Below, piece after piece: positions 17,662-64,000 of a stretch of DNA of 64,000 bases. The notes beneath the pieces are model-generated. The model saw only the letters and a list, made by a program, of their open reading frames with translations, was not told the DNA's origin and did not search any database. Position 1 is the stretch's first letter. Every line of letters starts with the position of its first letter. Made by a program: the position numbers and the translations under genes. Source of the stretch: Escherichia phage Ec_MI-02; sequence record OP856590.1; one strand, given 5' to 3'.

Positions 17662-17826
17662 TTACTCTTCTTTTTCTTTAGATTCCTCTTTTTTCTTTTT
17701 AGGAATCTGTTCAGGACCTTTATTTACTACAGCGCCTGACGTTGTTCCAGTGGAGATATTTTCAGGATTACCACCTGAATCTCCAGCTACCATATCTTCT
17801 TTGATAAATTCTTTATATGTTTTCAT
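17662..17826 (-). CDS. small hypothetical protein (54 aa) with capsid-targeting-like N-terminus
   Basis: not in track; ATG MKTYKEFIKEDMVAG...; directly upstream of gene 61. Confidence 0.4.
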   Translation of the reverse strand: MKTYKEFIKEDMVAGDSGGNPENISTGTTSGAVVNKGPEQIPKKKKEESKEKEE

Positions 17827-61339: not shown

Positions 61340-61553
61340 ATTTGACTTCCTCACCAGTACATAAATCATATTCAACTAAACGAATAGGTTCATGAATGCC
61401 ATATCCTTGAACAGAAATTTCTGTCGTAGGATAAATTCCATCAATATCACCCATGGTCCATGCTTCATTAAATTGCTGTTCGCCTGAATTACTAAACCAC
61501 TCGGCGAAAGCATTTAACACATCTTTAGAACCTTCAATAATTATCTTTGCCAT
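61332..61553 (-). CDS. hypothetical protein (73 aa)
   Basis: ATG; TAATG coupling. Confidence 0.5.
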   Translation of the reverse strand: MAKIIIEGSKDVLNAFAEWFSNSGEQQFNEAWTMGDIDGIYPTTEISVQGYGIHEPIRLVEYDLCTGEEVKYD

Positions 61554-61915
61554 TACAAGCTCTCAGTAAAGGTACGAGCGATAACGTCGCGCTGCTGTTC
61601 CGGAGTCAGAGAGTTAAAGCGAACTGCATAACCGGATACACGGATGGTCAGCTGCGGATATTTTTCCGGATGCTTAACTGCATCTTCCAGAGTTTCACGA
61701 CGCAGAACGTTAACGTTCAGGTGTTGACCACCTTCAATTTTAACTGTAGGATGTGATTCAATTTCAATTTCACGGGTGTGCAAACCGTAGAAAATTTCTG
61801 GGTCTACAAAAGAGTCCTCTTTAAAGGTTTTAGAAACAATAATTCGTGCTTGAATACCATCTTCAAAATAAATAGTACCTTTATGTGTGCCTTCAAGAAT
61901 TTGATATGCTTTCAT
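61553..61915 (-). CDS. autonomous glycyl radical cofactor GrcA/YfiD-like (120 aa)
   Basis: C-terminal [24 protein letters not shown] glycyl-radical signature. Confidence 0.7.
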
Positions 61916-61921
61916 ATAACC

Positions 61922-62251
61922 TCAATTAGAAAATAAATTTATCCAAGACTGTTCTTTAATTAAAAATGGCTCAGAATCATATGCCATTAAACTTTGGGTG
62001 ATTAGTCCTTTAAAAGGTCCATCAATAAATTCCATGGTAAAATATGGAATTTTATTCATTAATCTTGCATTAGGAGCAGTACACAAAACTCTGCATCCTT
62101 TGAATACACCTTTTTGTAATTTGTATTGCTTAGGATAAAATTCGCTCAAGACATTATTATTTGCCAAAATTTCAAAATGATTCACCAATTTATTTTTAAT
62201 AGTTTTTGGCGAAAAATAAAGATATTCGAAAAGCTGTGTGTCTGTCATCAT
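61922..62251 (-). CDS. hypothetical protein (109 aa)
   Basis: track ORF trimmed to ATG with ATGA coupling. Confidence 0.5.
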   Translation of the reverse strand: MMTDTQLFEYLYFSPKTIKNKLVNHFEILANNNVLSEFYPKQYKLQKGVFKGCRVLCTAPNARLMNKIPYFTMEFIDGPFKGLITQSLMAYDSEPFLIKEQSWINLFSN

Positions 62252-62835
62252 TGCATTCCGATCACAAAAAATTGAGGACGAGTAATACCACCGGTGCAAC
62301 ATTTACTATTGCAACAGTATTGTACAGTTTCAATATGAATATCGTAAATTTTATCCATATCGGGAGATTTAACAGGCTCATCGATTATATACAAAATCCG
62401 CGAAAGCGATAAACCTCTGAACTTGCTGCCTCTATTACCGATAAAACTACGGACAGAATCAGTAAATAAACGAAAACGTATATCATCACTAGAATAACGA
62501 GAAAATTCTTTTTTAATGTGGCCTGCAGAAATTTTAGCGTAAGCTGAAGTATTAGAAAGAACAATAACTGTTCCACCGTCATACAGCCAATTAGCAGCAA
62601 AGTTAGTCACAGCAGTTGATTTACCAGATTGGCGTCCACCATCTAGTCGAAGTGTACAATATTGTTTAAGCAAGTCTTCAAATGGTGGAATATAATCGTT
62701 TTTACAAATTTCTTCTACTCTAGCATCAGAATGGTGTGTAAAAGCATTCATCAGGGATAGATAAGGACCAGTTAAAAATGTTCTCATTTTATTCTCTCTA
62801 AATTTGGGCCATTCCATGGCGCATGAATTGTCCAT
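62248..62835 (-). CDS. P-loop NTPase-like protein (195 aa or 179 aa from second ATG)
   Basis: Walker A GGRQSGKST; start ambiguous (62835 or 62787). Confidence 0.55.
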   Translation of the reverse strand: MDNSCAMEWPKFRENKMRTFLTGPYLSLMNAFTHHSDARVEEICKNDYIPPFEDLLKQYCTLRLDGGRQSGKSTAVTNFAANWLYDGGTVIVLSNTSAYAKISAGHIKKEFSRYSSDDIRFRLFTDSVRSFIGNRGSKFRGLSLSRILYIIDEPVKSPDMDKIYDIHIETVQYCCNSKCCTGGITRPQFFVIGMQ

Positions 62836-62940
62836 TTCTGTATTTACCCATTACCGCACTTGGGCTCGACCTTATTACAGGTTGGCGGGAATCCCTCATA
62901 GAATCATGAGGTCCAGCTTGTTCCCATATTTCTTATTTGC

Positions 62941-63414
62941 TTATTTGAATGATTTGACGTACTGAATAGAGCCTTTGCTATTCACGAAAGCGATTTTACC
63001 ATTTTTGTTATACATGGTAGCAGTACGCTGATAACCATAAGTTTGTTTACCAGATTGATAACCAACTAATGCGAAATTATCTTCACCCATTTTATTCTGC
63101 TTAGCGCGGATACGTTCATGACCGTGTGCCATAAGAACCTTAGCGTCGCCAGTTGCAATGGATCTACGAGTTTTTTCATCTTCAACTGTATTAACAAAAT
63201 CGTCAAATGAATCAAATTTAGCATGAGATTTATTATACAGTTTTCCATCTACTGCATAATTATATCCCTGTACATCCATCTCAACTTCTGTACCATCATC
63301 CAATACAGCAGTGATTTTTTGACCTTTTTTAAATTTCAAAAGATCAGTAAAAGATTCAGCGATAATTTGAGAATTAATAGCTGCTTCAGTGATAAATTCT
63401 TGATATGTTTTCAT
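62941..63414 (-). CDS. internal-protein-like protein with capsid targeting sequence (157 aa)
   Basis: N-terminus MKTYQEFITEA matches the T4 internal protein CTS; basic protein. Confidence 0.6.
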   Translation of the reverse strand: MKTYQEFITEAAINSQIIAESFTDLLKFKKGQKITAVLDDGTEVEMDVQGYNYAVDGKLYNKSHAKFDSFDDFVNTVEDEKTRRSIATGDAKVLMAHGHERIRAKQNKMGEDNFALVGYQSGKQTYGYQRTATMYNKNGKIAFVNSKGSIQYVKSFK

Positions 63415-63423
63415 GTGTTTCCT

Positions 63424-63840
63424 TTAAATGTAAATAGTTTTACCGTAGTATTTATACCAGTATGGCTTCATTAAAATTTTTTCATCGAGTCGTTGTTGAC
63501 TCAACTTAATAGCTGATTTGCATGGATTATAATCATTTTTCCATTCTGCTGGAATATCGCTGATGTCAGGAACTTCAGTATCTTTTATACTAAACCCACG
63601 TTTTAAGCATTCCGTTATAATGTCTGATTGACGCTTTCGCAAAAATTCTAACTTATCGTAAAAGAACGTGACATGACCAGAACCTAAAATAAACTCGGAA
63701 GATATTTTAAAATCTTTAACCCGCTTACCATTTGCAACATGTTTACGAACTATACCAAAAACACGCGGCAGTTCACGGTATTCTGCGATTAAATGTTGAT
63801 CAGCAAGTTCAGATACTAAAGTCAAATTAATACGAGTCAT
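63424..63840 (-). CDS. denV: endonuclease V (pyrimidine dimer DNA glycosylase, 138 aa)
   Basis: 138 aa; [17 protein letters not shown] start; ATG confirmed. Confidence 0.9.
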
Positions 63841-63864
63841 TTTATCCCTCCAAGTAACTGTTAA

Positions 63865-63895
63865 TATACTATCACAATTCTAGGAGAAAGTAAAC
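63865..63895 (-). promoter_or_regulatory. T4 early-type promoter upstream of denV
   Basis: GTTTAC-N18-TAGTAT between e stop and denV start. Confidence 0.45.
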
Positions 63896-63899
63896 AACT

Positions 63900-64000
<101 letters not shown>

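Follow-up and report, generated by a model that had tools for sequence, protein, structure and literature searches.

The ip4 gene and the slot between e and vs.8

The window analyzed in this study, that is the whole stretch of 64 kb, is 100% identical to Shigella phage pSs-1 (Tequatrovirus). At 62941–63414, on the minus strand, it carries the coding sequence of ip4 (ipIV), which specifies an internal virion protein precursor of 157 aa and was assigned from the ORF list and from matches to Pfam DUF7412 and phrog_3155. The frame opens with ATG and its product reads MKTYQEFITEAAINS...KSFK in the ORF listing. A sequence-only reading of the window had proposed a basic protein of 157 aa at this position without giving the strand. 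The ORF was indeed found and the full-length protein is mildly basic (pI 8.9; 18 K and 5 R vs 11 D and 9 E); without residues 1–10 it has a pI of 9.1 and 17 Lys. The predicted structure, of moderate confidence (pLDDT 71.9), has helices at its N-terminus and, after them, a small beta-barrel into which helices are inserted. Comparison of this fold with known structures yielded nothing informative, and sequence and profile searches of PDB chains with Ip4 returned no credible match.

The upstream neighbor of ip4 is denV (63424–63840, minus strand), encoding the pyrimidine-dimer glycosylase endonuclease V, as identified by Pfam Pyr_excise, phrog_1183 and the pSs-1 annotation; only 9 bp lie between the end of denV and ip4. 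Ahead of denV we found the 3′ end of the lysozyme gene e (63900–64000, minus strand), which is cut by the window end and was assigned from its sequence and the pSs-1 annotation. It encodes the T4-lysozyme C-terminus and its stop codon is located at 63900–63902. The intergenic region between e and denV (63841–63899, minus strand) measures 59 bp, in agreement with the ∼60 bp noted beforehand for e lying directly upstream of denV. In alignments its first ∼45 nt proved homologous to the spacer that follows e in T4 and T2, before ipIII and ipIV, respectively.

On its other side ip4 is followed by a vs.8-like gene (62248–62787, minus strand; phrog_1488, pSs-1 annotation and T4 vs.8 translation), which forms the right-hand boundary of a variable slot. 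The spacer between the two genes (62788–62940, minus strand) aligns with conserved 5′ vs.8 sequence that follows denV in T4 and ip4/ipIV in pSs-1 and T2. We also considered this spacer as a structured RNA. It contains a CCUCAUG...UAUGAGG hairpin, the structure was not significant on folding of the spacer (z = −0.28), and an Rfam search of the same spacer gave no family match of note; the idea was rejected, the spacer being the conserved 5′ end of vs.8. In pSs-1 this gene shows a frame difference from T4 close to its start. Here the first 31 residues of T4 vs.8 (MRDSRQPVIRSS...) fall in an ORF of their own, which has 33 aa and stops early (62798–62899, minus strand), and the rest (62248–62835, minus strand) is in another frame and runs from an internal ATG; RefSeq annotates 179 aa. 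The vs.8 product carries a P-loop and has weak similarity to the ATPase part of the large terminase (phrog_2, E 3.6e-6; Terminase_6N, E 0.025). A vs.6 homolog at 61553–61915 (minus strand) encodes a stand-alone glycyl-radical domain of 120 aa (Gly_radical, E 2.3e-18; RVSGYAV motif), annotated by RefSeq as autonomous glycyl radical cofactor GrcA.

Of the two variable ip loci, one from e to vs.8 and the other beside 57B, the ip4 gene is situated in the first, between denV and vs.8. The T4 record gives the order e-ipIII-ipII-denV-vs.8, so that a gene downstream of denV does differ from the T4 arrangement, as the earlier reading had it. The slot between e and vs.8 holds ipIII-ipII-denV in T4, denV-ip4 in pSs-1 and RB51, ip4-ipII in a Klebsiella Jiaodavirus and ip4 alone in T2, RB32 and SG1, where ip4 comes directly after e without denV. 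The possibility that the e-denV-ip4 order is unusual was rejected, since at least 164 phage records cover at least 80% of the 1.2-kb vs.8-ip4-denV-e segment and the order e-denV-Ip4-vs.8 is already annotated in RB51. The hyperplastic regions of T4-type phages have been described as undergoing modular shuffling among short repeated cassettes (PMC2839356; review PMC3012670 citing Repoila et al. 1994), and the contents of the e-to-vs.8 slot represent this kind of shuffling. On a JGI metagenome contig (Ga0485749_006685; L005, 139–1215) a distant DUF7412 homolog with the leader MNFKDFLNE/S (the slash marks the cleavage site) lies directly downstream of a Pyr_excise gene, and hence the denV-ip4 linkage recurs in a remote T4-like phage.

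The Ip4 family among T-even internal proteins

Ip4 matches Pfam DUF7412 (PF24183) with E 5.7e-96 and 319.4 bits, against a cut-off of 27, over residues 1–157 (158 model positions), and it matches phrog_3155 'internal virion protein' over its full length (E 6e-102). The protein is 100% identical to 'ipIV' of T2 and of Yersinia phage PST and to 'Ip4' of RB32, 99.4% identical to Ip4 of RB51 and 99% identical to Ip4 of K3 (UniProt Q38388), which was also the only real match among predicted viral structures. Ip4/ipIV of K3, T2, RB32, RB51, RB70 and PST are the same protein (99–100% over 157 residues) with the same flanks, whereas the leader is of the T4-ipII type in pSs-1 ip4 and of the ipIII type in T2 ipIV. 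The ORF is therefore ip4, which belongs to the interchangeable genes for internal proteins of the T-even phages: leader, phrog_3155, DUF7412 and the identity to ip4/ipIV all bear out the initial reading of an internal-protein gene. The gene, its name, its family and its gene order are already known from public annotation (K3, T2, RB32, RB51). As the K3 'Ip4' entry and the T2 and RB32 annotations indicate, the name ip4 has been held since early work on T-even polymorphism.

Using tblastn we found Ip4 homologs in 470 of 50,697 phage records, which places Ip4 among the most widespread internal proteins. With 14 clusters at 90% identity the family is a small one, and its members are restricted to T4-like phages; homologs from Klebsiella phages (Jiaodavirus and relatives) and Salmonella phages (Gelderlandvirus) are ∼70% identical to Ip4. 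When 1.8 billion representatives were searched exhaustively with a profile, only seven matches were obtained, five of which are full or partial members of the Ip4 family, and there was no bridge from Ip4 to a known family. A tblastn search of the phage collection with the distant Ip4 homolog P0016 found no match, text searches of the literature for Ip4 as a phage protein returned nothing relevant, and the fPS-2 paper contains no proteomics.

Internal proteins had been described in the sequence-only reading as hypervariable. This holds for which ip genes a phage carries and not for the sequence of Ip4, which is at least 99% identical in 290 of the 470 records and is conserved between genera about as well as its neighbors: between pSs-1 and a Klebsiella phage the identity is 70% for Ip4, 66% for lysozyme and 82% for GrcA. 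An alignment of Ip4 from four phage genera showed 68 invariant positions in the mature domain, implying a specific, selected function. IPII of T4 and of the Klebsiella Jiaodavirus ValerieMcCarty04 (L004, 3173–3475) are 92% identical while the neighboring lysozyme is only 66% identical between pSs-1 and this Klebsiella phage, which suggests that the ipII cassette was exchanged horizontally between the genera in recent times. Judging from these identities, Ip4 seems to be a long-standing resident kept by purifying selection, and IPII seems to have been exchanged recently.

Ip4 has in common with T4 IPII and IPIII the leader, the nucleotide block around it, the e-to-vs.8 slot and the basic character. 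After residue 11, however, Ip4 has no detectable similarity to either protein, and it measures 157 aa vs 100 aa and 193 aa. BLASTP of the mature parts found no similarity (E 0.46 against IPII and 5.2 against IPIII), and matches of Ip4 to other ip families in phrog were restricted to residues 1–14, 1–21 or 1–65 with E 0.0009 or worse. Thus, in the comparison with the IPI/IPII/IPIII families a relationship holds for the leader, shared with IPII and IPIII, and not beyond it. The view of ip4 as a diverged ipII or ipIII was rejected on the BLASTP values of the mature parts; the locus is identical to another known ip gene, namely ip4 itself. T4 IPI (Ip1), which inhibits the GmrSD enzyme of E. coli CT596, and Ip4 are both small proteins with a compact mixed alpha/beta body (PMC3012670; for Ip4 according to the model), and both are packaged and processed (for Ip4 according to its ortholog). 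Ip1 differs in its locus beside 57B and in its longer leader MKTFKEF...ITE/A, cut after residue 19, and it has no sequence similarity to Ip4.

Leader, expression and packaging of Ip4

The N-terminus of Ip4, MKTYQEFITEA, equals that of T4 IPII and IPIII, MKTYQEFIAEA, at 10 of 11 aligned residues, and its designation as a T4-type capsid targeting sequence was correct. According to the T4 and family alignments the targeting sequence comprises residues 1–10, MKTYQEFITE (63385–63414, minus strand), and ends in a site of the prohead-protease type, I-T-E/A. A relaxed leader pattern (M[KR][TS][YF][QKE][ED]F) had only two matches in the six frames of the whole 64-kb window, which argues that the leader match of Ip4 is not due to chance. 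The consensus of the T4 prohead protease gp21 is (L/I)-x-E. In the Ip4 family an (I/L/M)-x-E site at Glu10 is kept in 12 of 12 aligned members, and three distant homologs, which are among the seven matches of the profile search, have diverged leaders of the same design, MNFxxFLNE/S. The family alignment revealed a second conserved (I/L/M)-x-E motif at residues 18–20 (I-A-E; 63355–63363, minus strand), in which E20 is invariant. Peptides from virions carrying an ortholog span this position (LATVGVMTESVGSNLLK), so the second motif is either uncut or incompletely cut.

The DNA in front of the targeting sequence is likewise shared. The alignment identified a leader and ribosome-binding block of ip genes, TATTTACATTTAAAGGAAACAC (63415–63436, minus strand), which is the same before T4 ipII and near-identical before T4 ipIII and T2 ipIV. 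These ∼22 nt together with 30 nt of targeting-sequence DNA make up a unit common to T4 ipII, T4 ipIII, T2 ipIV and the ip4 gene of the window. Since the block extends over the final four codons of denV and its stop codon, the denV C-terminus here is ...GKTIYI vs ...GKAIYA in T4. The junction between denV and the ip leader falls within an ATTTA microhomology.

A motif scan detected a T4-type late promoter consensus, TATAAATA, at 63449–63456 (minus strand), 34 nt upstream of the ip4 ATG and inside the 3′ end of denV. The motif occurs four times in the 64-kb window vs 11.4 times expected by chance, and two more copies are found upstream of e, as in T4. The denV gene of T4, which has no downstream ip gene, reads TACAAATA at this position; relative to T4, the motif arises by a synonymous substitution in the codon for a Tyr. 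In RB51, where the genes stand in the same order, this position reads TATAAGTA; the motif, its conservation having been judged from a small hand comparison, is not conserved, and for this reason we regard it as only probably a promoter. A pattern scan of denV 3′ ends in IMG/VR for co-variation of TATAAATA with a downstream ip gene gave no matches, and a generic scan for sigma-70 promoters and terminators yielded nothing informative.

Virion mass spectrometry and the processed N-terminus, named beforehand as the means to check the internal-protein assignment, gave a positive answer in published raw data, for an ortholog of 70% identity. CsCl-purified virions of the Klebsiella phages ValerieMcCarty03/04 contain a 'gp127/119 internal virion protein' with 66/66 peptide-spectrum matches (PMC13119998 Table 3; Zaugg-type virion proteomics, with the raw table as Supplementary Data S2). 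The protein VMC04_119 (WKM80649.1) is the Ip4 ortholog; it is 69.8% identical to Ip4 and its gene comes directly after e. None of its raw spectra cover residues 1–10 (PMC13119998 Supplementary Data S2). Two spectra, E.SRLATVGVMTESVGSNLLK.F, begin at Ser11, right after Leu-Asn-Glu10 (LNE/SR), and one spectrum, R.LATVGVMTESVGSNLLK.F, spans the second motif (PMC13119998). The two N-terminal spectra have modest scores (20.7 and 18.1), and other semi-tryptic peptides are found in the data set. The soluble lysozyme (e homolog, WKM80650.1) is represented by 17 spectra in the same 'purified virion' sample (PMC13119998), so presence in the data set alone is no proof of packaging. It is the start of the spectra after the leader, with none for residues 1–10, that indicates a packaged and processed ortholog in the Klebsiella phage. 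The N-terminus of VMC04_119 is the one expected from a prohead-protease cut at the end of the leader. Published raw mass-spectrometry data therefore already hold the processed N-terminus of an Ip4 ortholog, and pointing this out is a small addition of the present analysis. By analogy with the ortholog, Ip4 of pSs-1 is very probably a packaged and processed internal protein as well. For the IPII homolog of ValerieMcCarty04, the most N-terminal peptide within the part of the published data covered here starts at residue 13 (R.VSAGKLEAAINK.K; PMC13119998).

Function of Ip4 and further leader-bearing genes

Between 2022 and 2025 it was established that T4 Ip2, T4 Ip3 and a Bas37 protein are injected and inhibit type IV restriction enzymes; internal proteins are among the determinants of host range in therapeutic T4-like phages. 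In our view the best explanation overall, and a fairly probable one, is that ip4 encodes an internal protein that is packaged, cut and injected and that blocks one specific first-line nuclease of the host, most likely of type IV. Following established T4 biology, the precursor would be expressed late. Its transcription would start at the pair of late promoters ahead of e and probably also at the TATAAATA of ip4 itself, and the precursor would enter the scaffolding core of the prohead via residues 1–10. Cleavage by gp21 after Glu10 would then leave a basic protein of ∼16.5 kDa, whose N-terminal peptide is expected to be AAINSQIIAESFTDLLK, starting from Ala11. This mature form would be injected with the DNA and, by analogy, might bind and block one specific first-line nuclease in the cell. 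The likeliest candidate would be a type IV (modified-DNA-dependent) restriction enzyme, as for Ip1–3 (GmrSD variants) and Bas37_0260 (McrBC).

The analogy is drawn from several characterized proteins. IPII and IPIII of T4 undergo packaging and processing, and the T4 internal proteins are injected and act against GmrSD: Ip1, Ip2 and Ip3 each inhibit one distinct GmrSD-type type IV restriction enzyme, and the authors of that study proposed that all proteins of both ip loci target GmrSD variants (PMC12373910). IPIII is active in the cytoplasm without its leader (PMC9391042). The leader-bearing protein Bas37_0260 inhibits McrBC (HIDEN-SEQ preprint, bioRxiv 10.1101/2025.11.20.689424), which means that the targets of internal proteins reach beyond GmrSD. 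It shares with Ip4 the same class of N-terminal packaging signal and a variable Tequatrovirus ip locus; unlike Ip4 it belongs to the ipI locus, and the two were likened by description only. Since four of the four characterized leader-bearing internal proteins inhibit type IV restriction, the same activity is the most likely one for Ip4. Reasoning by analogy, we would give a type IV enzyme about an even chance of being the target and would assign most of the remainder to another host target.

Such another target could be a non-restriction nuclease, a retron, a toxin-antitoxin system, an abortive-infection sensor or a target of host takeover, on which Ip4 would act after being packaged and injected like its relatives. 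Jointly these candidates appear unlikely, while carrying appreciable weight. They would accommodate the outcome of Silas et al., in whose work none of the GmrSD variants acting on T-even phages was reproducibly inhibited by 'ip4-10' (PMC12373910 Supplementary Fig. 9), with their 'ip4' being presumed from nomenclature to be the present sequence. They would also fit T2, which encodes an identical Ip4 and is still restricted by GmrSD-ECOR21 and GmrSD-ECOR17 (PMC12373910); T2 has Ip4, lacks Ip2 and Ip3 and is restricted by the targets of Ip2 and Ip3. In addition, Ip4 is conserved about as well as neighboring housekeeping-like genes across phages of Escherichia, Klebsiella, Salmonella and Serratia, and a conserved target is in better accord with this than a fast-diversifying one. 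However, every one of the four leader-bearing internal proteins with a known target inhibits a type IV enzyme, and the GmrSD family is very diverse, with only 15 groups sampled. The lack of a specific host target altogether, with Ip4 serving as a generic basic head filler that neutralizes or condenses packaged DNA, seems improbable to us. The basic nature of the mature protein, the abundance of its ortholog in virions and the contacts of internal-protein lysines of T4 with DNA phosphates (review PMC3012670) are what one would expect of a filler. Yet the body of Ip4 is a well-conserved folded domain and not a low-complexity basic tail, with many Gly, Tyr, His and Asp among its 68 invariant positions; phages swap Ip4 for unrelated internal proteins or carry several of them together, and three T4 internal proteins once viewed as fillers have proved to be specific inhibitors.

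It is also conceivable that the leader is a relic of recombination and that Ip4 is an ordinary cytoplasmic early protein which is not packaged in pSs-1. The leader and its targeting block constitute a shared recombination module, whose presence alone does not prove its use, and ip4 is located in a region of early genes and shares their orientation. Against this stand the abundance of the ortholog in purified virions with its leader removed, the preservation of leader and cleavage site even in distant homologs with diverged leaders, and the late-promoter motif directly upstream of ip4, and we consider a relic very improbable.

Within the reading of Ip4 as an injected inhibitor of a first-line nuclease, the conservation of the protein leads to a more specific proposal that we put forward only tentatively. 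Ip4 might be an old, vertically inherited internal protein of the Tevenvirinae, sometimes linked to denV, that neutralizes a conserved first-line defense for which a paired phage inhibitor is still missing. This defense may be common to Escherichia, Shigella, Klebsiella, Salmonella and Serratia, and the target may be either type IV restriction enzymes of a further clade or a nuclease of another kind. If true, this would add a fifth pair of internal protein and defense, possibly with a new class of target.

Leader-type N-termini were noted in other genes as well. The second match of the leader pattern in the window belongs to an ORF of 54 aa (17662–17826, minus strand) directly upstream of the primase gene 61, which starts with MKTYKEFIKE/D, a near-perfect leader of the capsid-targeting type with an I-K-E motif. 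This ORF matches phrog_1823 (unknown function) and bears the name 61.1 in the annotation of Edwardsiella phage PEi20; 1228 phage records contain it, T4-like phages of Acinetobacter and Aeromonas among them. Outside the window, pSs-1 possesses three further genes with N-termini of this type, at 71997–72560, 72686–73159 and 75437–75694 (L008, 998–1561, 1687–2160 and 4438–4695). The products gp150 (MKTYAEFLTEA...) and gp151 (MKSYAQFLNEA...) belong to phrog_2280 'unknown function' and are annotated as hypothetical, and gp155 (MKTFKEF...ITE/S) belongs to phrog_3499 and adjoins 57B. A TATAAATA motif is located ∼40 nt upstream of the gene for gp151.
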